Below, in pieces: positions 32,837 to 51,906 of a stretch of DNA of 64,000 nucleotides. The first letter of the stretch is position 1. Each line of letters starts with the position of its first letter. The DNA is from Centroscyllium fabricii (lineage: Eukaryota). The notes under the pieces were generated by a model. The model saw only the letters and a program-made list of their open reading frames with translations, was not told the DNA's origin and did no database searches. The stretch spans positions 8,370,001 to 8,434,000 of the forward strand of contig JBNRSN020000014.1 of the NCBI GenBank assembly GCA_051313645.2. The letters are read 5' to 3'. The position numbers and the translations under genes were made by a program.

Positions 32837-35800
32837 TTGGGCGGGGCTGTAATTACGGTAGATTAGGTGGGGCTGTAATTATAGTAGATTGGGTGGGGCT
32901 GTAATTACAGTAGATTGGGTGGAGCTGTAACTCCGGTAGATTGGGCGGAGCTGTAACTCCGGTAGATTGGGCAGGGCTGTAATTACAGTAGATTGGACGG
33001 GGCTGTAATTACAGTAGATTGGGTGGGGCTGTAATTACGGTAGATTGGGTGGGGCTGTAATCATGGTAGATTGGACGGGGCTGTAATTACAGTAGATTGG
33101 GCGGGGCTGTAATTACAGTAGATTGGGCGGAGCTGTAATTACGGTAGATTGGGCGGGGCTGTAATTACAGTAGATTGGACGGGGCTGTAATTACAGTAGA
33201 TTGGACGGGGCTGTAATTACAGTAGATTGGACGGGGCTGTAATTACGGTAGATTGGGCGGAGCTGTAATTACAGTAGATTGGGTGGGGCTGTAATTACGG
33301 TAGATTGGGCGGGGCTGTAATTACAGTAGATTGGGCGGAGCTGTAACTCCAGTAGATTGGGCGGGGCTGTAATTACGGTAGATTGGGCGGAGCTGTAATT
33401 ACAGTAGATGGGGCTGTAATTACGGTAGATTGGACGGGGCTGTAATTACAGTAGATTGGGTGGGGCTGTAATTACAGTAGATTGGACGGGGCTGTAATTA
33501 CAGTAGATTGGACGGGGCTGTAATTACAGTAGATTGGACGGGGCTGTAATTACGGTAGATTGGACGAGGCTGTAATTACGGTAGATTGGGCGGAGCTGTA
33601 ATTACAGTAGATTGGGTGGGGCTGTAATTACAGTAGATTGGGTGGGGCTGTAATTACAGTAGATTGGGTGGGGCTGTAATTACGGTAGATTGGGTGGGGC
33701 TGTAATTATGGTAGATTGGGTGGGGCTGTAATTACAGTAGATTGGACGGGGCTGTAATTACAGTAGATTGGACGGGGCTGTAATTACAGTAGATTGGACG
33801 GGGCTGTAATTACGGTAGATTGGGCGGAGCTGTAATTACAGTAGATTGGACGGGGCTGTAATTACAGTAGATTGGACGGGGCTGTAATTACAGTAGATTG
33901 GACGGGGCTGTAATTACGGTAGATTGGGCAGGGCTGTAATTACAGTAGATTGGGTGGGGCTGTAATTACGGTAGATTGGGCGGGGCTGTAATTACGGTAG
34001 ATTGGGTGGGGCTGTAATTACAGTAGATTGGACGGGGCTGTAATTACAGTAGATTGGACGGGGCTGTAATTACAGTAGATTGGACGGGGCTGTAATTACG
34101 GTAGATTGGGTGGGGCTGTAATTACAGTAGATTGGGTGGAGCTGTAACTCCGGTAGATTGGGTGGGGCTGTAATTACAGTAGATTGGACGGGGCTGTAAT
34201 TACAGTAGATTGGGTGGGGCTGTAATTATAGTAGATTGGGTGGGGCTGTAATTATAGTAGATTGGGCGGGGCTGTAATTACGGTAGATTGGGTGGAGCTG
34301 TAATTACGGTAGATTTGGCGCAATAGTAATTACGGTAGATTGGGCGGGGCTGTAACTCCGGTAGATTGGGCGGGGCTGTAATTACGGTAGATTGGGCGGG
34401 GCTGTAATTACAGTAGATTGGACGGGGCTGTAATTACAGTAGATTGGACAGGGCTGTAATTACAGTAGATTGGATAGGGCTGTAATTACGGTAGATTGGG
34501 TGGAGCTGTAACTCCAGTAGATTGGACGGGGCTGTAATTACGGTAGATTGGGCGGGGCTGTAATTACAGTAGATTGGACGGGGCTGTAATTACGGTAGAT
34601 TGGACGGGGCTGTAATTACAGTAGATTGGGTGGGGCTGTAATTACGGTAGATTGGGCGGAGCTGTAATTACAGTAGATTGGGTGGGGCTGTAATTACAGT
34701 AGATTGGACGGGGCTGTAATTACAGTAGATTGGGTGGGGCTGTAATTACAGTAGATTGGACGGGGCTGTAATTACATTAGATTGGACGGGGCTGTAATTA
34801 CAGTAGATTGGGTGGGGCTGTAATTACAGTAGATTGGACGGGGCTGTAATTACAGTAGATTGGGTGGGGCTGTAATTACAGTAGATTGGACGGGGCTGTA
34901 ATTACGGTAGATTGGGCAGGGCTGTAATTACAGTAGATTGGATGGGGCTGTAACTCCGGTAGATTGGGTGGGGCGGTAATTACAGTAGATTGGGTGGAGC
35001 TGTAACTCCGGTATGTTAGGCGGGGCTGTAATTACAGTAGATTGGGCAGGGCTGTAATTACAGTAGATTGGGCGGGGCTGTAATTACGGTAGATTGGGCA
35101 GGGCTGTAATTACAGTAGATTGGGCGGGGCTGTAATTACGGTAGATTGGGTGGGGCTGTAATTACAGTAGATTGGACGGGGCTGTAATTACGGTAGATTG
35201 GGCAGGGCTGTAATTACAGTAGATTGGATGGGGCTGTAACTCCGGTAGATTGGGTGGGGCGGTAATTACAGTAGATTGGGTGGAGCTGTAACTCCGGTAT
35301 GTTAGGCGGGGCTGTAATTACAGTAGATTGGGCAGGGCTGTAATTACAGTAGATTGGGCGGGGCTGTAATTACGGTAGATTGGGCAGGGCTGTAATTACA
35401 GTAGATTGGGTGGGGCTGTAATTACGGTAGATTGGGCAGGGCTGTAATTACAGTAGATTGGACGGGGCTGTAATTACGGTAGATTGGGCAGGGCTGTAAT
35501 TACAGTAGATTGGGCGGAGCTGTAACTCCGGTAGATTGGGTGGGGCTGTAATTACAGTAGATTGGACGGGGCTGTAATTACAGTAGATTGGGTGGGGCTG
35601 TAATTACGGTAGATTGGGTGGGGCTGTAATTACGGTAGATTGGGTGGGGCTGTAATTACAGTAGATTGGACGGGGCTGTAATTACAGTAGATTGGACGGG
35701 GCTGTAATTACAGTAGATTGGACGGGGCTGTAATTACGGTAGATTGGGCGGAGCTGTAATTACAGTAGATTGGGTGGGGCTGTAATTACAGTAGATTGGG

Positions 35801-38575
35801 TGGGGCTGTAATTACAGTAGATTGGACGGGGCTGTAATTACAGTAGATTGGGTGGGGCTGTAATTACGGTAGATTGGGTGGGGCTGTAATTACGGTAGAT
35901 TGGGTGGGGCTGTAATTACAGTAGATTGGATGGGGCTGTAATTACAGTAGATTGGACGGGGCTGTAATTACAGTAGATTGGACGGGGCTGTAATTACGGT
36001 AGATTGGGTGGGGCTGTAATTACAGTAGATTGGGTGGAGCTGTAACTCCGGTAGATTGGGTGGGGCTGTAATTACAGTAGATTGGACGGGGCTGTAATTA
36101 CAGTAGATTGGGTGGGGCTGTAATTACAGTAGATTGGGTGGGGCTGTAATTACGGTAGATTGGGTGGAGCTGTAATTACGGTAGATTTGGCGCAACAGTA
36201 ATTACGGTAGATTGGGCGGGGCTGTAACTCCGGTAGATTGGGCGGGGCTGTAATTACGGTAGATTGGGCGGGGCTGTAATTACAGTAGATTGGACGGGGC
36301 TGTAATTACAGTAGATTGGACAGGGCTGTAATTACAGTAGATTGGATAGGGCTGTAATTACGGTAGATTGGATAGGGCTGTAATTACGGTAGATTGGGTG
36401 GAGCTGTAACTCCAGTAGATTGGACGGGGCTGTAATTACGGTAGATTGGGCGGGGCTGTAATTACAGTAGATTGGACGGGGCTGTAATTACGGTAGATTG
36501 GACGGGGCTGTAATTACAGTAGTTTGGGTGGGGCTGTAATTACGGTAGATTGGGTGGGGCTGTAATTACAGTAGATTGGGTGGGGCTGTAATTACAGTAG
36601 ATTGGGTGGGGCTGTAATTACAGTAGATTGGACGGGGCTGTAATTACGGTAGATTGGGCAGGGCTGTAATTACAGTAGATTGGATGGGGCTGTAACTCCG
36701 GTAGATTGGGTGGGGCGGTAATTACAGTAGATTGGGTGGAGCTGTAACTCCGGTATGTTAGGCGGGGCTGTAATTACAGTAGATTGGGCAGGGCTGTAAT
36801 TACAGTAGATTGGGCGGGGCTGTAATTACGGTAGATTGGGCAGGGCTGTAATTACAGTAGATTGGATGGGGCTGTAACTCCGGTAGATTGGGTGGGGCGG
36901 TAATTACAGTAGATTGGGTGGAGCTGTAATTACAGTAGATTGGGCGGGGCTGTAATTACAGTAGATTGGGCGGGGCTGTAATTACAGTAGATTGGGCAGG
37001 GCTGTAATTACAGTAGATTGGGCGGGGCTGTAATTACGGTAGATTGGGCAGGGCTGTAATTACAGTAGATTGGACGGGGCTGTAATTACGGTAGATTGGA
37101 CGGGGCTGTAATTACAGTAGATTGGGCAGGGCTGTAATTACAGTAGATTGGGCGGAGCTGTAACTCCGGTAGATTGGGTGGGGCGGTAATTACAGTAGAT
37201 TGGACGGGGCTGTAATTACGGTAGATTGGGTGGGGCTGTAATTACGGTAGATTGGGTGGAGCTGTAATTACAGTAGATTGGACGGGGCTGTAATTACGGT
37301 TGATTGGACGGGGCTGTAATTACGGTAGATTGGGTGGGGCTGTAATTACGGTAGATTGGGTGGGGCTGTAATTACGGTAGATTGGGTGGGGCTGTAATTA
37401 CGGTAGATTGGGTGGGGCTGTAATTACGGTAGATTGGGTGGGGCTGTAATTACGGTAGATTGGGTGGGGCTGTAATTACGGTAGATTGGGCGGGGCTGTA
37501 ATTACGGCAGATTGGACGGGGCTGTAATTACAGTAGATTGGGTGGGGCTGTAATTACGGTAGATTCGGTGGGGCTGTAATTACGGTAGATTGGTCGGGGC
37601 TGTAATTACGGTAGATTGGGTGGGGCTGTAATTACAGTAGATTGGGTGGGGCTGTAATTACAGTAGATTGGGTGGGGCTGTAATTACAGTAGATTGGGTG
37701 GGGCTGTAACTACAGTAGATTGGACGGGGCTGTAATTACAGTAGATTGGACAGGGCTGTAATTACAGTAGATTGGACAGGGTTGTAATTACAGTAGATTG
37801 GGCGGGGCTGTAATTACGGTAGATGGGGCGGGGCTGTAATTACGGTAGATTGCGCGGGGCTGTAATTACAGTAGATTGGGTGGGGCTGTAATTACAGTAG
37901 ATTGGGTGGGGCTGTAATTACAGTAGATTGGGCGGGGCTGTAATTATAGTAGATTGGGTGGGGCTGTAATTATAGTTGATTGGGTGGTGCTGTAATTATA
38001 GTTGATTGGGTGGTGCTGTAATTACGGTAGATTGGACGGGGCTGTAATTACGGTAGATTGGACGGGGCTGTAATTACGGTAGATTGGACGGGGCTGTAAT
38101 TACGGTAGATTGGACGGGGCTGTAATTACGGTAGATTGGGCGGGGCTGTAATTATAGTAGATTGGGTGGGGCTGTAATTACGGTAGATTGGGTGGGGCTG
38201 TAATTATGGTAGATTGGGTGGGGCTGTAATTACGGTAGATTGGGTGGGGCTTTAATTACAGTAGATTGGACAGGGCTGTAATTACGGTAGATTGGGTGGG
38301 GCTGTAATTACAGTAGATTGGACAGGGCTATAAATATGGTAGATTGGGCGGATCTGTAATTACAGTAGATTGGGCGGATCTGTAATTACAGTAGATTGGG
38401 CGGATCTGTAATTACAGTAGATTGGGCGGGGCTGTAATTACAGTAGATTGGATGGGGCTGTAATTACAGTAGATTGGACGGGGCTGTAATTACAGTAGAT
38501 TGGATGGGGCTGTAATTATGGTAGATTGGGCGGGGCTATAAATATGGTAGATTGGGCGGATCTGTAATTACTCTA
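32837..38575. repeat. Tandem array of a 26-bp unit (about 220 copies)
   Basis: Consensus GTAGATTGGRYGGGGCTGTAATTACR; rare variants recur at exact multiples of 26 bp; edges are degenerate. Confidence 0.98.
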
Positions 38576-38828
38576 GACTGTGTGGGGTTTGTTATTTGAG
38601 TGGATATTTAATTAGAATTGTTGGGGCTGGGCTTGTTAACCACAGTAGGTGAGATTTAGATTGTTAGTGGTGATATCATGTTCCAGAAGTGTTGGATTTA
38701 AATTGTCTAGCAGGTTTCTCAAGTTGCCCTCAGAGCACCCAATTCCTTCCTGGCCTAACTTCCCTGTAGGATATATGATTATCTATCATTTGTTCTACAT
38801 CCAAGGTCTGTGAACCTTGCAGACCCAC

Positions 38829-39064
38829 CTGTCTATGGGGGACACACTCGCGGCCTGCACTTGGAGATCGGGACCATCGCCTGTCCCTCGATCGAGGTCT
38901 GCTGTACTCATGCCGTTCCTGGGAGTAGCGCTCCTTGTCGGATGATGTGTGGTGGTGGTGGTGATGGTGATGTTTCCTATCCTTGGGTCTGCCTCGTTCT
39001 CGATCCTTCTCTTTTGGGGGGAGGTCGCCTGACTGTGTTGTGGTACTGAGGTCTGTTCCAAGCC
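38829..39064 (-). CDS. CACNA1A: CACNA1A exon 46 equivalent (poly-His exon)
   Basis: Acceptor gatatag|GG and donor CAG|gtgggt; 236 nt, phase 1 to 0. Reads (G)[46 protein letters not shown]...[17 protein letters not shown], closely resembling human Cav2.1. Confidence 0.96.
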
Positions 39065-39078
39065 CTATATCAATGAAA

Positions 39079-40763
39079 TAACAACAGAAAATGCTGGAAA
39101 AACTCAGCAGGCCAGGCAACATCCGTAAAGAGAGAAATATAGATTTGACGTTTCGGGTTAGGACCCTTTGTCAAAACTGAAGCAAGGAAATGAAACAGGT
39201 GGGAAGGCCGGGGGAGCTGGGAGTGAACAAAACGGAAGAGAAAACAAAAAAGAAAAGACATTAAGAGGTTTTCAAAATGAGACGAGATGGTGATGGGGCT
39301 GGGGACAGGAGACAGCTGTAGATTAGGCATGAAAAGCACTGGCAGAATGGGAGGTGGCTGCCATATGGGAGAGAGAGAGAGAAAATAAAGAGAGAAGGGA
39401 GGCCAAATAAAAGGTGTGGATAAAAATAGGTAACAATATAATGGGGGCCGAAGTAATGATCTGAAATTGTTGAACTCAATATTGAGTCCGGAGGGCTGTA
39501 AAGTGCCTAATCGGAAGATGAGGTGTTGTTCCTCGAGTTTATGCTGAGCTTCGGTGGAACAATGTAATAGGCCGAGGACAGAGAGATCAGAGTGGGAGTG
39601 AAGCGGAGAATTAGTGACAGGCGACCGGGAGCTCCGGGTCACCCTTACGGACTGAACGGAGGTGTTCCGCAAAGCGGTCACCCAATCTGCGTTTGGTCTC
39701 CCCAATGCAGAGGAGACCGCATCGTGAGCAGTGAATACAGTATACCAGATTGCAAGAAGTACAAGTAAATCGCTGTTTCACCTGGAAGGGGTGTTTGGGG
39801 CCCTGGACAGTGGGAAGGGGGGAGGTATAATGGCAGGTGTTACATCTCCTGCGCTTGCACGGGAAGATGCCGAGCGAAGGGGAAGGGGTGCTGGGGGTAC
39901 TGAAGGAGTGGACTAGGGTGGCTCGGAGGGAGCGGTCCCTACGGAATGCTGAAAGGGGAGGGGAGGGGAAGATGCGTTTGGTGGTGGGATCACGTTGGGG
40001 ATGGCGAAAATGGCGGCGGATGATCCGTTGAATGTGGAGGCTGGTGGGATGAAAGGTGAGGACAAGGGGAACCCTATCGTGGTTCCGGAAGGGAGGGGCA
40101 GGGATAAGGGCAGAAGTGTGGGAAATAGAACGGACACGGTCGAGGGCCGTGTCAACCATGGGGAATCCTCAGTTGAGGAAAAAGGAAGACATATTGGAAG
40201 CACTGGTGTGGAAGGTGACATCGTCAGAGCAGATGCGTCAGAGATGGAGAAACTGGGAGAATGGAATAGAGTCCTTACAGGAAGTGGGGTGGGAGGAAGT
40301 GTAGTCCAGGTAGTTGTGGAAGTCAGTGGGCTTGTAGTGAATGTTGGTCAATAACCTATCCCCAGAGATGGAGACGGAGATGTCGAGGAAGGGAAGAGTC
40401 GGAGATGGACTATGTGAAGGTGAGGGAAGGGTGGAAATTGGAGGCAAAGTGAATGAAATTGTCGAGTTCAGCGCGAGAGCAGGAAACGGCGCCGATACAG
40501 TCATCAATGTACCGGAAAAGGGAGGGGACCCGTGTAGGACTGGAACAAAGAGTGTTCCACATATCCCACAAAAAGGCAGGCATAGCTGGGACCCATGAGG
40601 GTATCCATAGCAACACCTTTGATTTGGAGGAAATGAGTGGAGTCAAAGGAGAAGTTGTTCAATGTGAGAACAAGTTCAGCAGGTGGAGGCGGGTGGTGGT
40701 GGACGGGGACTGGTCGGGCCTCTGTTCAAGGAAGACGCGGAGCGCCCTCAGGCTATCCTGGTA
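39079..40763 (-). mobile_element. 5'-truncated Penelope-like retroelement (RT + GIY-YIG), 15-bp TSD
   Basis: Fragments LFRYIDDCIG (RT), LPFLDISV...HYKPTD...SSHP (thumb) and NLVYCIHCSRCGLLCIGETKRRLGDRFAEH (GIY-YIG). CCTATATCAATGAAA at 39064-39078 and 40764-40778. Confidence 0.93.
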
Positions 40764-41049
40764 CCTATATCAATGAAAGCTGATTATTTAGACAAAGAAA
40801 GAGAAATCGGAAAATGTTTAGAAGGAAAGATTTGCATTTATACAGCACCGTATCTTTTCTCTCAGAAACGTCTCAATATATTTTACATAGAATTATTTTG
40901 AAGTAAGGCACATAGGGAAAAATGACAGCTATTTTAGACATTGATTTCCTAAGCCACCGTCCTCCCAGTGTTTCATCTTCAAATAATGTGGGCACCCTGG
41001 CACGTCACATAATGAAAGAATCACAGGTTAATTGATGTCGACATGCATC

Positions 41050-41590
41050 AATTGTTTGTGGTCAGATACCATTCAACCTTGATTGAGTACAAACTTGTTC
41101 TGTTGATATAGGCCATGGAGTTGATAGGACCCTTGATACTCAGATGTGTGGCATCTACAAGACCTGACGCTCAATCGAACCCTGTGAAATTTCTGCATCC
41201 TGACCAGCCGATACCTCTTTTCCAAAGGAAAAGTGATGAAGATGTTGCCCCTTGTAAACATAGATTTTGTCACTTGCTTGGTATGTGCGTACACTGCAGA
41301 CTGCCTGATGTAGCAGCCATCCCTTGGCTGGCTTGGAAAGATGCAGTAGCATGGAAGCTTAACGTTACGACAGCATTCACTTCTAAGGCAAGATGTCCTA
41401 GATGTTGCTGATGGTAGGACTCTGTGACGATGTCTTTTGTGAAGTTGAGGTGGTGAAGACAGTTCTCCTCTGACATGTCCAGGGACGTGTGGAGGGGATC
41501 TCGAAACACAGATCTTGGGGTGTTGACAAAACACCTCGGATGTCGTCCCCTCCCGAACTTGTCTTCCTCATCTGTCTTGCACCATTATGA
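41050..41590 (-). pseudogene. Degenerate Harbinger/HARBI1-like transposase remnant
   Basis: Across frames: MSEENCLHHLNFTKDIVTE, VTLSFHATASFQ, QSAVYAHTKQVT...IFITFP and GLVDATHL (first catalytic Asp motif, compare GxIDCTH). Confidence 0.65.
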
Positions 41591-41891
41591 GAACCCTAAA
41601 AAAGATTCTCACCTTTGCCATGTTGTGAGACACTGTTTAGACGGCAGTACCAACTAAGAATAATGAAGGAAAGCACTGGCAACCCGCCCTGTCTAGAACA
41701 ACTTTATCAGCCTAACTTTGATTTAACTTCCATTAGGTTATTTAAAAATCTCCTTATTTCCAATGGTAAGTTTTTTTATATGAATATATACAAGTACAGA
41801 AAGAGACATTGTTGAAGGTTAGAAGAATAAGCAAAGATGGAGGTTGATGGAACACAATGGTTCCTCATACTGAGACCATAGCTTGTCATAT

Positions 41892-42179
41892 TGTAGCATA
41901 GCCACTAGGGGGAGACACTCTGGTCTCCCCAGGATGTTAGAATCCACATTCCAGAGTTGGTCCCGCCCCTGTCTCCCCATTGGGTAGTTGGATCAACAGT
42001 TCCGGTTCCTGATTGGTCCTGCGGGCTGTCAGTCAAAAGCCCCATGATGCCTTGCGGTTTCGCGCCTTTTGTAAGTTAGTCGTGTTTGGATTGAAATGAA
42101 TAAAGACCTGTTATAGCTTGCTCCGCGATCTTTCGACGTCTTATTGATTTTAAAGAGTGGGGAACTGCCGTTCCCTACA
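41892..42179 (+). repeat. 5' LTR
   Basis: TG...CA ends, AATAAA, and about 16 mismatches to the 3' LTR counted by eye (about 94% identity). Confidence 0.95.
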
Positions 42180-42181
42180 AT

Positions 42182-42193
42182 TGGTGACCCCGA
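42182..42193 (+). promoter_or_regulatory. Primer-binding site complementary to the tRNA-Trp 3' end
   Basis: TGGTGACCCCGA, 2 nt after the 5' LTR. Confidence 0.85.
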
Positions 42194-42850
42194 ATGTCAG
42201 TCACAGAAGGTACTGACCAGAACACGAGCCCCGAGGCCGGGCAATGTGAAAGGCCGTCGATCATCAGCCTCCCCGCCTTTTGGGAGCACCAAGCAGCCGC
42301 TTGGTTTCTGCAAACGGAGGCCCAGTTCCAGCTCAAACGCCTCAACAACGATGCGGACCGCTACCTCCTCGTCGTTTCGGCTCTGCCCAGCCACATTATC
42401 GTGGACCTGCTATGGGACCCGTCACAAGCTAACAGGTACGCTGCCGTTAAGAAGCGACTGCTTCAGGCTCACGACCTACCGGAGGACATACGGGCCCAGC
42501 AACTCTTTGAACTCTCGGACTTAGGCGACTCCACGCCTACGCGCCTGATGAATCGCACGTCGCCCTCCTCGGGGACCACAAAGACTGCCCATTATTTCGG
42601 GCGCTATTCATCAGTCTGCTCCCGCAGCCGGTACAATCGGCTTTAGCAAACGTTAAAGGCGGGACCTACGCCGAGTTGGCCATCGCAGCGGACCGCGTTT
42701 GCCTTTGCTCACCCGCTAACTGCAACCACGAGGCTCTCCGCCCCTACGCAGTGGGCAACGCCTCAACCCCAGCCGGGACTCTGTTATTACCAAACACGCT
42801 TCGGCCCGAAGGCTCATCGCTGCCGACCACCTTGTTCATTCAATGGCAGA
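42194..42850 (+). pseudogene. Gypsy gag (frameshifted)
   Basis: LPAFW...AWFLQTEAQF N-terminal motif, LGDSTPTRLM, and the CsRn1-type knuckle CYYQTRFGPKAHRCRPPC in a downstream frame. Confidence 0.8.
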
Positions 42851-43243
42851 GGTTGTGCCCAAACCCCATGCTCCGAACCTGCACCACCGCCAGGGCCCAG
42901 CCACTGCTAACGCCATTGGCACAGCGGGAGAGCTGCTGTACGTCATGGACTCACTTTCCGGGCGAAGGTTCCTCTGCGACACCGGGGCTCAATGCAGCAT
43001 TCTACCAGCTACGCAGCTCGATCGACAGGCAGGCTGCAGTGGCCCGCCCCTTGTGGCGGTGAATGGCGCAGCCAAAGCCACTTTCGGAAAACGGCGGGCT
43101 GAGATTCGCCTGGGTGGCCAACGGTTTACCTGGGATTTCATTACGGCCAATGTGGAACATCCATTGCTTGGTGCGGATTTCCTATGTGCCCATGGCCTGC
43201 TCATGGACGTCCGGGGCAGACGCCTCATGGATGCGTCTACCTT

Positions 43244-43737
43244 GATATTGGAAACAAGATGGCGGCGCGCATAGACGCAGTGGCTTTGCGTCTCCCGATG
43301 TTTGTGTCCCTGGTTCCCGCACTGTTCCTGGAGAGGATGGCGGGGTCGGTGGAGTAGAGCACCGGTGCTCCTCAATCGGGGCACCGGTGCTGAACAAGCC
43401 GTCGTGGTCGTCTGAGCGCCGGGGCGCTGAGAGCGGGCTCAGAGAGCCGCGGGGCCGTGGGGCTCGGAGGGCCGTGGGGCCGCCGTCGGGCGCCGAGAGC
43501 TGCGAGGCCGTCGGGGGCCGGGAGCTGCGAGGCCGTCGTGGCTGGAGCGCCAGGGCCTGCGTGGCCGGCACCGGGCGCATCGCGGCTGCAGCGCCGGGTG
43601 GTCCTGGTGGGATGGAATGGATCAGACTGGGACTAAAGGACATTTAATAATTTGGGAGATTGCATGTTTGCATTTCGTTGTTTTGTGTATGTTCACTTTA
43701 CAATGACAATAAATTGAATCTTATCTTATCTTATTAT
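43244..43737 (+). mobile_element. Short non-autonomous retroposon (Rex1/Babar-like ends) nested in Gypsy pol
   Basis: TACCTT TSD at 43238-43243 and 43738-43743. 5' CAAGATGGCGGCG, GC/CpG-rich body and 3' gacaataaattgaatcttatcttatcttatt tail. Removing it restores the pol frame (DASTFASLPC...). Confidence 0.75.
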
Positions 43738-45891
43738 TACCTTTGCCTCTCTGCCCTGCCAGCGGAGCGACAGCCAACCCCTCGTGGGCTCCTGCTCTCC
43801 TCCTCTTCGCGACAAATATGTGTGCTTACCGGCCGATTTCCTGGCCATTACACAGCCGACCTTTTCAGATGTGGCGGCCAAACATTGCGTCCAGCATCAC
43901 ATCGCAACTACTGGCCCACCGGTTTTCGCTCGAGCCAGGCGCCTCGACCCCACAAAAATGGCAGTGGCCAAGAAGGAATTCTCTGCCATGGAGAAGTTGG
44001 GGATCATTCGTCCTTCAAATAGCCCGTGGTCGTCCCCGCTCCACATCGTTCCCAAGCCCGGTGGCTGCTGGTGACCGTGCGGCGACTACAGGCGCCTCAA
44101 TGACACTACCATGCCGGACAGATACCTGGTGCCACATATTCAAGACTTTTTGGCACACCTGGCGGGTAAAACAATTTTTTTTAAAGTCGACCTCATCCGA
44201 GGATATCACCAGGTCCCGGTCCATCCGGACAACGTCCAAAAGACGGCGGTTATTACCCCTTTTGGACTCTTTGAATTCCTCCGTGTGCCTTTCGGGTTAA
44301 AGAATGCGGCACAGGTTTTCCAACGGCTGATGGACTCTCTCCTTCGGGACTTGGACTTTTTATTTGTATATCTCGATGACATTTTGGTTGCTAGCGCGGA
44401 TGAATCTCAACATGTTGTGCATTTGCGTTCCCTTTTTCAGAGATTGGCCCACCATGGCCTAATTGTAAACCTGGTTAAATGCCAATTCGGCCTTACTGAA
44501 ATTGATTTTTTAGGTCATCACATCTCCCCGGCGGGAGCCATCCCTTCACCCTCTAAGGTCCAAGCGGTCACAGATTTTCCCCAGTTCAGCTCGGTTAAGT
44601 CACTCCAGGAATTTCTGGGAATGGTAAATTTTTATCACTGGTTCCTCCTCAATGCTGCCTCCATCATGCGCCCCCTGTACGAGGCCACTAGGGGTAGGAC
44701 CGGCAAGGATAGCCTTCAGTGGTCGGCTAATAAGGCTGAGGCTTTTCGCCTCACTAAGTCGGCCCTGGCCGAAGCCACCCTTTTGACCCACCCCATCCCG
44801 GGCACCCTGCTTTCACTCACGACGAACGCCTCGGATCATGCCATTGGCGCCGTTCAGCAACAATGGGTTGATGGTGCCTGGCAGCCCCTTGCATTTTTTA
44901 GCCGCCAACTGTGGAAAAATTAGCTCTCGTATAACACGTTCGACCGGGAACTGCTAGCTCTTTTTCTTGCAGTGCGGCATTTTCGTTTTCTCTTGGAGGG
45001 CCGTCCGTTCACTGCCTACGTGGACCATAAGCCCCTCATTTTTGCTATGTCCAAAGTCATGGAGCCCTGGTCAGGTCGCCAACAGCGGCACCTGAATTTC
45101 ATATCAGAATTTACTACGGATATCCGTCACGTGTCCAGTAAGGATAATGTCGTTGCCGACTGTCTCTCCCGTCCTTCCCTCCATGCGGTCCATGTTGGTG
45201 TCGATTACGCAGAAATGGCGTGCGCCCAGCGGGTGTACGCTGAGCTGCAGGCTCTTCGTTTTGTGTCCACCGGCCTGACCCTAGCGGACATCCATTTTCA
45301 TGCAGCCGGCACGACTCTTTTGTGTGACGTTTCCGTTTCCACCCCCAGGCCCTTAGTGCCCACCTCCTGGCGCAGGCGCATTTTCGGTTTGGTCCATGGG
45401 CTCTCCCACCCAGGCATGCGGGCTTCTCAGAAGCTTCTGTCAGCCAAATTTGTTTGGCCGGGCCTGCACAAGGATGTGCGGGACTGGACTAACACCTGCC
45501 AGGACTGCCAACGCGCTAAAGTCCATCAGCATACTAAGGATCCCCAGCAAACTTTTCCGGTGCCAGAGTGGCGTTTTGATCATGTCCATGTTGATTTGGT
45601 TGGCCCCGTGCCCCATCACAGGGTTTCACCCATCTCCTTACCATCGTAGACCGTACCACTAGGTGGCCGGAGGTCGTACCCCTTTCTTCCACCACTACGG
45701 CCGACGTGGCACGCGCCTTTATTTTTTCATGGGTGGCCCGGTTTGGGGTTCCGTCGGACATGACTTCCGACAGGGGCCCACAGTTTACCTCCCAGCTGTG
45801 GAGCGCAATCGCCACTGGTCTGGGGACGCAGTTGCACCGCACAACTACTTATCATCCACAGGCAAACGGTATTTGCGAACGTTTCCATCGC

Positions 45892-48434
45892 ATCAAAAGG
45901 GAAATTAGAGAAGCGTGCAATAAGAGCCCAGCTGTCATCATAGGTGACTTTAACTTGCATATAGATTGGACTAGCCAAATTAGTAAAAATAATGAGGAGG
46001 AGGAATTCCTTGAGTGTGTAAGGGATGGTTATCTGGATCAATATGTTGAGGAACCAACTCGGGATCAGGCTATCTTGGACTGGGTACTGTGCAATGAGAA
46101 GGGACTAATTAGTAATCTTGTTGTACGGGGACCCTTGGGTCAGAGCGATCATAACATGATCGAATTCTCACTCGAAATGGAGAGCGAAGAAACTGACTCA
46201 GAGACTAAGGTCCTAAATTTAAATAAGGGGAATTATGATGCCATGAGACGGGAATTAAGTAAGACTGATTGGGCAGCGTTTCTGGGGGGACTGGCGGTGG
46301 ATAAACAATGGCAAGCATTTAAAGACAGAATGGCAGAATTGCAGAAATTGTTTATACCAATCTGGCATAAAAAGAAATCTAAAAAGGTGACTCAACCGTG
46401 GATAACAGGGGAAATTAGGGACAGCATAAAATCCAAAGAAAGGGCATATAAAATAGCCAAAAAAAGCACCAGACCTGAAGATTGGGAACAGTTTAGGATA
46501 CAACAAAGGAGGGCAAAGGGATTAATCAGGAGGGGAAAAATAGCGTACGAAAGTAAGCTTGCGGCAAACATAAAATCTAACTCCAAAAGCTTTTACAAGT
46601 ATATTAAGAGGAAAAGACTGGTGAAATCCAAAGTCGGTCCATTACAGTCAGATTCTGGGGAATATATAATGAGAAATAAGGAAATGGCAGACCAATTAAA
46701 TGCATATTTTGGGTCTGTCTTCACAAAGGAAGACACAAAAAACCTCCCTGAGATATCAGGAACCATAGGGACAATTGGAAGGGAGGAACTGACAAAAATC
46801 AATATCTCTAAGGATATGGTGTTGGGGAAGCTAAAGGGACTGAAGGCTGACAAATCCCCAGGGCCTGATAACATGCATCCTAGGGTACTCAAGGAGGTGG
46901 CCCTAGAGATAGCAGATGCTTTAAGGATAATTTTCCAGAATTCGATAGACTCGGGAACAGTGCCCATGGATTGGAGGGTAGCTAACGTTACCCCACTATT
47001 TAAAAAGGGGGGTAGGGAAAAAGCGGGTAATTACAGACCTGTAAGCCTTACATCGGTGGTGGGCAAAATACTAGAGTCCATCATTAAGGATGTAATAGCA
47101 GAGCACTTGGCAAATGGGGACAGGATAGGACAGAGTCAACATGGATTTACAAAAGGTAAATCGTGCTTGACGAATCTATTGGAATTCTTTGAGGAAGTAA
47201 CTGGTAAAATAGATGGGGGAGAGCCAGTAGATGTGGTGTACCTGGACTTCCAAAAAGCCTTCGATAAGGTCCCACATAAAAGATTAGCATGTAAAATCAA
47301 GGCTCATGGGATAAGGGGAAAAGTATTGACGTGGATAGAGAACTGGCTGGCAGATAGAAAACAGAGAGTTGGAATAAACGGCTCATTTTCTGAATGGCAG
47401 GCAGTAACAAGTGGAGTACCTCCGGGATCTGTCCTGGGTCCCCAGCTGTTCACAATTTATATTAATGACCTAGATCAGGGAATCGGATGCAGCATCTCCA
47501 AATTCGCAGACGACACTAAACTAGGAGGGGGGGTAGGCTCAGAAGAAGAGATCAGGAAGCTCCAGAGCGATTTGGACAAATTGGGGGACTGGGCAGATAC
47601 ATGGCAAATGCACTATAATGTGGATAAGTGTGAAGTTATCCACCTTGGGGGCAAAAACGGGAGGGCAAATTATTATTTAAATGGCAATAGATTGGGAGAT
47701 GGGGAAGTACAGAGAGACCTGGGTGTTCTTGTGCACCAGTCATTGAAGGCGAGCATGCAGGTGCAACAGGCGGTCAGGAAGGCAAATGGTATGCTGGCCT
47801 TCATATCAAAAGGGTTAGAATACAGGAACAAGGACACCTTACTACAGCTGTACAGGGCACTGGTGAGACCACACCTCGAGTACTGTGTGCAGTTTTGGTC
47901 GCCTCATCTGAGGAAGGATGTTCTTGCCATGGAAAGAGTGCAGCGGCGATTCACCAGGCTGATACCAGGAATGGCAGGAATGACCTATGAGGAGAGACTA
48001 TGTAGTTTGGGGATGTACACACTGGAGTTTAGAAGATTGAGAGGGGATCTCATAGAAACATATAAAATTCTGACAGGCCTGGACAGACTAGATGCAGAAG
48101 GAATGTTTCCGATGGCAGGAGAGTACAGAACTAGGGGACACAGTTTAAGGATAAGGGCTAAACCATTTAGGACAGAGATGAGGAGGAATTTCTTCACCCA
48201 GAGAGTGGTGAACCTGTGGAACTCACTGCCACAGAGGGCAGTGGACGCCCGCTCATTAAATATATTTAAGAGGGAATTAGATATATTTCTGCAGGCAAAA
48301 GGGGTTAAAGGTTACGGAGAGAAGGCAGGGACGGGATACTGAACTGAAGGATCAGCCATGATCTCAATGAATGGCGGAGCAGGCTCGAAGGGCCGAATGG
48401 CCTACTCCTGCTCCTATCATCTATGTATCTATGT
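45892..48434 (+). mobile_element. Young 5'-truncated CR1 LINE nested in the Gypsy integrase
   Basis: Uninterrupted ORF2 portion (APE C-terminal GDFN and SDH motifs, RT FADD) to the stop at 48342, then a ctatgtatctatgt tail. Integrase resumes exactly (ERFHR|TLKASL). Confidence 0.95.
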
Positions 48435-49179
48435 ACCCTTAAGGCCTCACTCCATGCCAGCCTGGTCGACGTCAATTGGTTGGACAGGCTCCCTTGGGTC
48501 CTGCTGGGGTTGCGCTCCGCGCCCAAGGACGACCTCGCGTGTCTTCTGCCGAACTCATTTTTGGACAACCTTTGCGCATTCCAGGAGAGTTCCTCCCCTC
48601 CATCACCGAGAATTGGTCAGCCGGCGAGCAGCTCACCCGGCACAATGACGCCGCACATCGTTTCCTTCCTGTGCCCACCTCTTGGCACGGTGCCCGGTCG
48701 TCCCACATACCCACCGAGCTCCGCAGGGCACGATTTGTTTTTGTGCATCGCGATGCCCATAGAACTCCTTTACAGGCACTATATACTGGCCCTTTTAGGG
48801 TGCTGGAGGCTGGCGACAAGACTTTCCTCCTCGCGGTTGGGGGCCGACAGGACCGCGTTTCCATCGACCGGCTTAAACCGGCCCATTTGGCCCCTGCCTC
48901 GCCTGAACAGTTTTCCCGGGCCCCGCGCCAGGAGCGTTTCTCTGTCCCGAGCGTGCCCCCAGCGGGTCCCGCGCTGTTTACCCCCCCTGGGTACAGCTCC
49001 AGCTCTTGCTCCACCTCCGGGTTTCTCCCCGGTCTCACCTCCTACTCCTGCGGCACAGCCTCCCTCCAGTCCTGTTCGCGGATCCCCGGTATCGGCCTAC
49101 CGCACTCGTTGCGGCGGCCTCATCATGCTTCCTTGGAGGTTGACGTCTCATGTTCATGAGGATTCTGGGCGGGGGCGTG

Positions 49180-49467
49180 TGTAGCATTGTCACTAGGGGG
49201 AGACACTCTGGTCTCCCCAGGATGGTAGAATCCACATTCCAGAGTTGGTCCCGCCCCTGTTTCCCCATTGGGTAGTTGGAGCAACAGTTCCGGTTCCTGA
49301 TTGGTCCTGCGGGCTGTCCGTTAAAAGCCCCATGATGCTTTGCGGTTTCGCGCCTTTTGTAAGTTAGTCGTGTTTGGATTGAAACGAATAAAACCCTGTT
49401 TAAGCTTGCTCCGCTATCTTTCGACGTTTTATTGATTTTAAAGAATGGGGAACTGCCGTTCCCTACA
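49180..49467 (+). repeat. 3' LTR
   Basis: Matches the 5' LTR and is followed by the ATAT TSD. Confidence 0.95.
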
Positions 49468-50007
49468 ATATGAAGGAAGGTAAGCAGTGAAGGATGTTCC
49501 CTGCAAGGCTAATTTCCAGGATCCTTCTATGTTTGTTCCTCTCCAGTTTTCTTTCCTGTTTTCCCTCCTGTCCCGAGTAATACTAGGGTGAGATTCCATG
49601 GGTGTAAGGTGTCACCTGGCACCTCACCCGAATGGCCATTCTTCGTGTACCAGCCTAGATAATGCTTGCCATTCAATGTCCGAGAGCATCACATCCAAAC
49701 TTGATCTTGTCCCAAACCAAAATCCACACACCTGCACTTTCCAGAAGCAGTCATTATGCAGCGATCAGGAGCTGGATTGCTGGCTGTTTTTTCCCCTCCC
49801 TAGCTCAAGGACGCTGAACTATCGTGCCCGTAATGTCGCCCTGGTTAACCGCAGCTAACAGCACAGACCAAGGACTGGTCCGGAGTCCTGCACGCCTCAG
49901 TATGACACAAGACGGTTCTGTCATCAACTGAGCCAGAGCAGATGCTCCTCCCGTATATTTTAATGTGACTGGAATGTGACAATAATTCCACTCAGAACTG
50001 ATCTATA

Positions 50008-50620
50008 AGAACATAAAAATTAGGAGCAGGAGTCGGCCATACGGCCCCTCGAGCCTGCTCCGTCATTCAATGAGATCACGGCTGATCATCGACCTCAACT
50101 CCACTTTCCTACCCGATATCCATATCCCTCGATTCCCCGAGAGTCCAAAAATCTATCGATCTCAGCCTTGAATATACTCAAAGACTCAGCATCCACAGCC
50201 CTCTGGGGCAGAGAATTCCAAAGATTCACAACCCTCTGAGTGAAGAAATTCCTCCTCATCTCAGTCCTCAATGGCTGATCCCTTATCCTGAGACTGTGAC
50301 CCCTGGTTCCAGACTCTCCAGCCGGGGGAAACAACCTCTCAGCATCGACCCCGTCAATCCCCCTCAGAATCTGATATGTTTCAATGAGATCACCTCTCAT
50401 TCTTCTAAACTCCAGAGAGTATCGGCCCATTCTACTCAATCTCTCCTCATAGGACAACCCTCTCATCCCAGGAATCAATCCAGTGAACCTTTGTTGCACC
50501 GCCTCCAAGGCAAGTATATCCTTCCTCGGATAAGGAGACCAAAACTGTGCCCAGTACTCCAGGTGTGGCCTCACCAAAGCCCTGTACAATTGTAGCAGGA
50601 CTTCCTTACTCTTGTACTCC
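50008..50620 (-). mobile_element. CR1 LINE 3' fragment
   Basis: YRALVRPHLEY...RGDLIETY...GKWS* plus 3' UTR; a related piece lies at 5548-5760 (-). Confidence 0.92.
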
Positions 50621-50696
50621 CCCGGTGTATCGATAAGTCAAAAGTTTGGGCTAGTTCCCTCAAGGGAATGATTTCAGTTGAATGATAAAATCATAC

Positions 50697-50889
50697 CTGT
50701 GTCAGCATCTGTATATCGGCTCAATGACCTTTCGGACGTCCTGTGAACCCTCTCCCTGCGGCGATGGGGCCTTTGTGACTCCTCCGGGATGACCCGTTCT
50801 AGTGAGTAGTCATCCAGCCGCATTCCTTTGGAGCGCTGGTGGCCCAGTGTGGATGCTGACCTCTTAATCGGACTCGTGTCTTCGATAGT
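50697..50889 (-). CDS. CACNA1A: CACNA1A exon 45 equivalent
   Basis: Acceptor catcgcag|ACT and donor ACAG|gtatga; 193 nt, phase 0 to 1. Reads [64 protein letters not shown](G); the phase matches the next exon. Not in the supplied ORF track. Confidence 0.95.
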
Positions 50890-51906
50890 CTGCGATGTAA
50901 AAGAAAATGTATGTGACTTAAAGGAACATGCTGTGGTTGGTAAAAAATAAAATCATGAAACTAGTGTGAAGTGCACAGCGTGTGAAAAGCAACAGGATTG
51001 TGTGGAAACGCACAGCACTTGGAGGGGTGACACATATTGTACAGCCACCTGCGCTAGAAAAATACAGGTTCCTCCATCACTAAAGCTTCCTGTCATGCTC
51101 TCAAATACCAGTCCCTTTTCTGGGGCAAAGCATAAAACTTATAGCATGTCTTATACATACATACACTACCATACACATATATCTATATACATGCCTCCTT
51201 TATATTTATAAAACCATGTATCTTATTAAAAGTTTTACGTCTGTGCACTGTCCTATCCGCAAAACCTTACTTCCTGTCACCAGGTTTTTTTGACCCACTT
51301 GTGTGTCGGATTTTTTTCATTATAAAATGTCCACATTTCCAATGACATCTGCCACACTCGAATTACCCCCTCCTGCCAGTGATGGTGCTGCAGTGCCTCC
51401 ACTGAGGGGGGAGAGCCCCGGTTTTAACCCCAGGTGGATTCCCCACTCAGGCCTGAGTTAAAATTACAGTCGGGTCGCAGTGATGTCATCGGGCCGCGAC
51501 ATGTGTATATGTAAAGAAGGACCCCGTTGGCTCCGGGCGGGTGTCCTTGCTGCCTGCTCAGGAGAGCAGGATAAAATCACAGATGTTGCGATTATGGCGG
51601 CTTTCGGATGGGTAAGAGCCAGGGCAATTTTAACAGCCTGCCCGCCAGGTTTCTGTTGAGTGAGTAGGGTTAAAATCTTTTACAGAGGCAGTTCCGTTAT
51701 AAATATGGACATAGGAATTTATAATGGAAAAATTGACGAAGTGTGGACAAATATATATTGTCAGTAAATATATTGAAGATACGCTAACATACGTGCACTT
51801 ACAGCACTCTAATGCAGTGTACAGATACAAACTATGCAACCCTGAATATACATTATAACTGCACACACACTATCTGTGCATACATTACCTATACATAGTG
51901 TATAAG

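Follow-up and report, generated by a model that had tools for sequence, protein, structure and literature searches.

How is a retroelement removed from a transcript when it lies directly against the 3' splice site of a coding exon? The question is raised by a window of 64,000 nucleotides from Centroscyllium fabricii (assembly GCA_051313645.2, contig JBNRSN020000014.1, positions 8,370,001 to 8,434,000), in which a Penelope-like insertion separates two identical copies of an exon's acceptor. The sequence-only reading had proposed that the upstream copy, where AG meets GT, could act as a ratchet point for recursive splicing, a process that, together with its RS-exons, was reportedly studied in vertebrates by Sibley et al. 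in 2015. The analysis described here favours another answer, with a probability of about 0.6: a Penelope-like element inserted with a 15-bp target-site duplication (TSD) at the exon 46 acceptor, one ordinary splice removes it, and the AG/GT motif is a likely accidental by-product.

The gene on the minus strand of the window is CACNA1A (Cav2.1), as indicated by the exon at 39064-38829, which matches P/Q-type alpha-1A proteins. The exon numbers used here are those of the sequence-only reading and presumably follow the human convention, with no exon count behind them. The parts of the gene under study are as follows, where a slash marks a splice junction.

50697..50889, minus strand: CACNA1A exon 45, 193 nt, ending in ...GACACAG, with the donor GTATGA at 50696
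39065..50696, minus strand: intron 45, 11,632 nt, or 9,932 nt minus the insertion
38829..39064, minus strand: CACNA1A exon 46 in its short form, 236 nt, GLGTDLS...HRQ, with the donor CAG/GTGGGT

The exon 46 query gave 76 protein matches to P/Q-type alpha-1A at E <= 1e-10. The protein identity to shark and ray CACNA1A was 95-99% for exon 46 (against most of these proteins), 88-97% for exon 45 (tblastn, with matches that include flanking residues), and 80-84% for the last exon, in sharks and rays alike. In a search of the host genome (7.2 Gb), exon 46 had a single match, which rules out a second intact copy of the gene. A Pfam search with exons 45 and 46 and the element fragments returned one sub-threshold C1_4 match and nothing else.

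The insertion lies at the downstream end of intron 45 and is composed of the following features.

40764..40778, minus strand: upstream TSD copy, 15 bp, corresponding to the 14 nt ahead of the short form of exon 46 plus its first G
40759..40764, minus strand: GTACCA, in which G belongs to the TSD, T is atypical of the family, and ACCA belongs to the element; a candidate donor for recursion or for a microexon
39079..40762, minus strand: Penelope-like copy, 1,684 nt, 5'-truncated, frameshifted and gene-sense, whose 3' end gives a pyrimidine tract
39064..39078, minus strand: downstream copy of the TSD, carrying the TAG acceptor whose AG ends at 39065, and adjoining exon 46

On the minus strand, 40779..40765 reads CTTTCATTGATATAG and is followed at once by GTACCA, with GT at 40764-40763, so that TAG/GTACCA stands at the TSD junction as the sequence-only reading had stated. 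The two TSD copies are identical and spaced 1,700 nt apart, and the segment 40764..39065 is exactly 1,700 nt long, comprising 15 nt of TSD, one T, and 1,684 nt of element. In a relative, B, a contig with 245 and 321 letters on its two sides joins 40764 to 39063, with one 15-bp copy and no element, which indicates that the duplication in C. fabricii is a true TSD. A contig of another relative, C, likewise starts at 40764, with 92 further letters outside the alignment. The contigs of both samples of C. fabricii bridge the upstream GT junction with 0 differences and reach 46 and 40 letters into the element, and those at the downstream junction reach only 20 letters into it; both samples belong to a single study, and the assembly may have been made from one of them. 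The bridging of the upstream junction in 2/2 samples rules out an assembly artefact, and the insertion looks tolerated.

The site presents a Penelope-like retroelement with a TSD, an empty counterpart in a relative, and intact reading frames. Its presence in one species and absence in the other, together with a TSD that bears both splice sites, is what is expected of a transposon-made intron, and we regard the feature as an insertion whose TSD rescues a splice site and as a candidate for such an intron. At 39078-39075, the first four TSD bases are the element's own next bases in 18/29 other copies (L032-L060), and with this microhomology at the 3' junction the actual length of the TSD may be 11-15 bp.

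The element belongs to a very abundant family, for which 40/40 scored candidates matched in each of two genome searches. The identity of the present copy to others was 91-96% on 241-nt queries and 83-94% over the longest alignments, the latter suggesting an insertion that is probably long-standing. One sister copy (L004) exhibited matches to RVT_1 at 112-233 (E 1.8e-4) and to GIY-YIG at 478-511 (E 1.6e-3), neither of which reaches the Pfam cut-offs, and two others (L007 and L021) exhibited one of these domains each, whereas neither domain was matched in Pfam by the three protein fragments of the present copy. The order of reverse transcriptase (RT) and then GIY-YIG within a single frame of a sister copy, at these sub-cut-off scores, agrees with the Penelope-like layout of RT plus a C-terminal GIY-YIG given in the available portions of PMC11167929 and PMC8557442. 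The very many 5'-truncated copies in this genome are a further likeness; the present copy differs in being truncated within RT and frameshifted. Repeats of 11-17 nt were observed at both ends of at least 3/29 other copies (L033, L036, and L043), a lower bound because many alignments end short of the true 5' end. At the position of the T in GT, 28/29 other copies carry C, which rules out the GT as a signal built into the element. The T is either an untemplated base or a later change, and its departure from the usual family base makes the GT look accidental. At the other junction, the element's 3' end places TTTTCTGTTGTTA ahead of the downstream TSD copy.

The sequence-only reading had taken the TSD as intronic and had missed a CAG acceptor 15 nt upstream of the TAG that relatives, by their protein models, use; this makes the duplicated site optional exon sequence in those relatives, and possibly so in the ancestor of the present lineage. 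Two further features are therefore needed.

40780..40830, minus strand: ancestral pyrimidine tract, followed by the upstream CAG acceptor, whose AG ends at 40780; use of the CAG by relatives adds AFIDI
40765..40779, minus strand: optional extension of exon 46 and candidate microexon, 15 nt, ending in the ancestral TAG acceptor

The CAG at 40780 is the first AG past the tract and is in frame, and translation of 40765..40779 joined to exon 46 completes the AFIDI codons and starts the next Gly. We examined 22 shark and ray proteins, of which 21 span the exon 45-46 junction; the protein cluster consulted was covered for 15 of its 26 members. DT-AFID(I/V)-GLG was observed in 7/21 (P0194, P0196, P0200, P0201, P0202, P0203, and P0205), from the five genera Chiloscyllium, Stegostoma, Hypanus, Pristis, and Rhinoraja, and DT-GLG in the other 14. 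The AFIDV variant occurs in one skate, and the Pristis isoforms X2 and X3 differ by AFIDI alone. All 21 proteins are gene models, for which RNA support is inferred and inclusion levels are not implied. The insert was absent from all 76 protein matches of exon 46, almost all of which are from bony vertebrates. On these protein models, shark and ray CACNA1A is predicted to have a conserved in-frame alternative acceptor 15 nt ahead of exon 46.

Short-distance tandem 3' splice sites are a known kind of alternative acceptor pair. The CAG and TAG acceptors of shark and ray exon 46, in frame and 15 nt apart, resemble them, with the difference that in C. fabricii the pair now lies 1.7 kb off the exon and only its proximal member was copied. 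In the literature covered, which leaves out most subscription papers, nothing was found on an alternative acceptor of CACNA1A exon 46 in sharks.

For relative B, a contig of run X13 (the kind of run is not on record) covers exon 45 exactly and stops at 50697, where the leftmost cut is predicted for a CAG join, as opposed to 50696 for a TAG join. This end hints, weakly, at use of the CAG in relative B, and it depends on the reading of the cut convention, with 64 further letters outside the alignment. A contig of run X14 that starts at 39063 fits a TAG join or the unspliced empty site alike. Among the matches listed for four probable RNA runs of relatives over 38740-50950, in which repeats were abundant, no exon 45-46 joint was found. 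Of the 21 sequencing runs listed for C. fabricii itself, none is recorded as RNA, which says nothing about expression. Relative B also carries about 14 extra intron bases at 40893-40906, which is roughly 115-125 nt ahead of the CAG.

The strengths of the splice sites were then compared along intron 45. Acceptors were ranked by a crude pyrimidine-tract score over the 324 YAG of the intron, and donors by the energy of their duplex with the U1 end (kcal/mol), also a crude score. Intron 45 holds 24 YAG/GT and 52 AGGT, and the AG/GT at 40765/40764 is, as a motif, no more than chance would give; it is distinguished by its AG being the ancestral acceptor. The upstream TAG (40765) ranked 10th of the 324 YAG and first among those with GT next, and the downstream TAG (39065) ranked 5th. 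The pyrimidine share over -20..-4 was 0.65 for the downstream acceptor versus 0.59 for the upstream one, and over -40..-4 it was 0.68 for both, the upstream site having its tract farther back. The last 14 bases of the downstream acceptor are the same as those of the ancestral acceptor. The element itself contributes pyrimidine-rich AGs at 39094, 39177, 39217, and 39358 (minus strand), three of which outrank 39065 by the crude score, and they would lengthen exon 46 by 29, 112, 152, and 293 nt, respectively, all out of frame. These stronger orphan AGs indicate that acceptor quality alone cannot decide use, and gene-sense copies of this abundant family may commonly supply cryptic acceptors.

For the donors, the rebuilt CAG/GTACCA scored -7.1, against -7.2 for the true donor of exon 45, and the genomic TAG/GTACCA scored -5.5, with 5/9 consensus matches. 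The exon 46 donor scored -10.9. Pairing with U1 as good as that of GTACCA or better is attained by 110/256 CAGGTNNNN, and 7/24 YAG/GT sites of intron 45 score -7.1 or better. Within 450 nt downstream of 40764, the best GT scored -5.2 and none was comparable in strength; the first donor at -7 or better lies 983 nt downstream.

In the favoured explanation, the Penelope-like element inserted at the exon 46 acceptor and duplicated 15 bp of it, and the element is likely removed by one splice that joins the exon 45 donor to the downstream TAG made by the duplication (39065). The downstream TAG probably wins through exon definition, as it adjoins exon 46 with its strong donor, and it may also be helped by the pyrimidine tract that the element brought, whereas the upstream CAG and TAG, now stranded, have no downstream donor to pair with. 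The predicted outcome is the normal short DT/GLG protein, with the AFIDI isoform lost or much reduced. Since the tract of the downstream copy is at least as good and this copy lies next to exon 46 and its strong donor, a recursive route is not needed. The available text of PMC6224609 adds that vertebrate recursive splicing begins with the definition of an RS-exon and that repression by the exon junction complex (EJC) acts on recursive donors and donors near junctions. The available portions of PMC10156609 report that conventional lariats dominate in human introns of <1 kb with recursive lariats, and that the recursive share grows with intron length.

Three observations run against one-step removal: the upstream TAG did once serve as an acceptor, keeps its native tract, and is the best-ranked YAG/GT of the intron; the donor rebuilt there equals the authentic one of exon 45 in U1 pairing; and recursive sites are known in introns of comparable size. 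In addition, clean use of 39065 is our presumption, because three of the element's AGs have better tracts and would put exon 46 out of frame. Should the one-step splice be the only one in use, the locus is an ordinary tolerated insertion in which the TSD chanced to rescue the acceptor, with the probable loss of a minor isoform. It would also be a natural test of exon definition, with the same acceptor sequence at two places, only one of them adjoining the exon.

A doubtful alternative is that the upstream CAG (40780) is still active. After the insertion, the CAG has no downstream counterpart, and the AFIDI form is possible only through a 15-nt microexon (40779-40765) that uses the GT, with TAG/GTACCA as its donor, 39065 as the next acceptor, and a new intron of 1,700 nt. 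The AFIDI isoform would then be preserved exactly and the protein unchanged. With this CAG in use among relatives, on their protein models, the GT is at least as good a candidate for a microexon donor as for a ratchet point of zero length. The join is exact and keeps the frame, the extension recurs in five shark and ray genera, and the Pristis isoforms and, as a weak hint, the X13 contig end point the same way. The arrangement also fits the textbook model of the available portions of PMC3443670, in which a duplicated target gives a donor AG/GT and an acceptor AG/G. The tract set back from the CAG bears a loose resemblance to the shifted tracts that the accessible part of bioRxiv 10.64898/2026.01.16.699960 describes for neural microexons; the nearest TGC, however, lie at -57 and -68 from the CAG, with none nearer, although according to the same part of that preprint some neural microexons lack UGC. 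The microexon donor is weak, cryptic microexon donors close to junctions are subject to EJC repression (PMC6224609, available text), 14/21 of the gene models show the short form, and the AFIDI insert was seen in 0/76 of the matches to exon 46.

It is therefore unlikely, on this balance, that a retroelement made an ancient alternative acceptor into a 15-nt microexon, the TSD and the extra T providing donor and acceptor of a 1,700-nt intron with AFIDI kept. As in the transposon intron gain at a proto-splice site described in the available portions of Yenerall and Zhou 2012 (PMC3443670), AG/GT stands on the left and AG/G on the right, and exact removal leaves the coding sequence intact. The differences from that account are that the target here is AG/GG, with a T that is neither a target base nor the usual element base, and that the site is an optional 15-nt extension, so that the upstream exon would be a microexon. 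Unlike introners, as far as the sources available describe them, this is one Penelope-like insertion in an elasmobranch and not an intron-making family. Were the microexon used, a vertebrate intron gain could be traced, which is uncommon, such gains being termed rare in vertebrates in the available text of PMC12357937; the element, its TSD, and the empty site can all still be seen. It would also reveal a route from alternative acceptor to microexon. The survival of AFIDI as a microexon is, in our view, a more telling question than recursion.

Recursive splicing at 40765/40764 is possible, but it is less likely than plain splicing and, as a route for a substantial share of the transcripts, carries only a slim chance. 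In this two-step route, exon 45 is joined to the upstream TAG (40765), and the rebuilt CAG/GTACCA is then spliced to 39065. Part of what the sequence-only reading claimed for it stands: exon 45 does end in ACAG, and its join to the 40765 acceptor rebuilds CAG/GTACCA; the second splice would remove exactly 1,700 nt; the arithmetic of the restored DT/GLG junction holds; and the rebuilt donor, described as plausible but weak, is not hopeless given its U1 energy. The site is a YAG/GT with a genuine former acceptor and the best tract among such sites in intron 45, and the available portions of PMC10156609 report such sites for introns of 0.2 kb and more, where 100 lariat-defined human recursive sites have a host-intron median of 3.4 kb (Table 1). 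The same portions give medians near 550 kb for saw-tooth sites, far above the 11.6 kb of intron 45, and a motif, Y5+N0-4YAGGT, that 40765/40764 does not match and four other sites of the intron do.

Other features also weigh against the recursive route. No RS-exon donor lies nearby, by the crude score; the U1 pairing of the rebuilt donor is commonplace; the site is lineage-specific, being absent in relative B; the competing CAG 15 nt upstream comes first past the tract; and failure of the second step would lead to a stop after five codons. Positions +4 to +6 are CCA rather than the AGT of the fly consensus in the available part of PMC5126111. The vertebrate RS-exons in the available text of Blazquez et al. 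2018 (PMC6224609) resemble the site in having a YAG/GT within an intron of a neuronal gene, a candidate rebuilt donor, and a premature stop on failure. They differ in that the present site has no downstream donor defining an RS-exon, lies in an intron of 11.6 kb, is lineage-specific and TSD-made, stands 1.7 kb ahead of the true acceptor, and is known from DNA alone. The same text sets a MaxEntScan threshold of 5.52 for rebuilt recursive donors; no published MaxEntScan score was found for the rebuilt 9-mer, which occurs in a primer in the available portion of PMC4371643. In the literature covered, which leaves out supplementary lists and most subscription papers, no paper was found that joins recursive splicing, a retrotransposon, and target site duplication. 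Trace stochastic recursive use of 40765/40764 is possible, and if recursive use were shown, a TSD would have given rise to a recursive site here.

Least probable is appreciable mis-splicing, through the upstream acceptors without re-splicing or through cryptic acceptors in the element's 3' part, leading to premature stops, nonsense-mediated decay, and less CACNA1A or fewer C-terminal isoforms: reading into the element does meet a stop after GTRIA or AFIDIGTRIA, and the four frame-shifting AGs of the element include three that outrank the true acceptor, but in a single-copy neuronal channel gene with intact frames and an apparently old insertion, carried by both samples, such products are argued to be minor.

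Several further observations were made along the gene. In intron 45, at about 41900-43240 (plus strand), a poly(A) signal, a primer-site-like motif, and gag/protease-like frames were noted by eye, a fragment that we take to be a decayed LTR-retroelement-like sequence, as a candidate label; it is covered in run X14 and almost absent from X13, X16, and X17. Intron 46 contains a 5.7-kb tandem array (32837-38571) of 221 copies of a 26-nt unit with 90% match, which begins about 260 nt past the exon 46 donor and drives the strong GC skew of the region. In the last exon, five CAG codons at about 17455-17441 (minus strand) encode QQQQQ, which we take to resemble the human SCA6 polyglutamine as a likeness only, positional homology not being implied. 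The start of that exon, 17606-17598 (minus strand), reads TAG/GGCAG/TAG, the tandem acceptor whose choice in human CACNA1A decides whether a long C-terminus is made or translation ends at once, and it seems to be conserved in the present gene.
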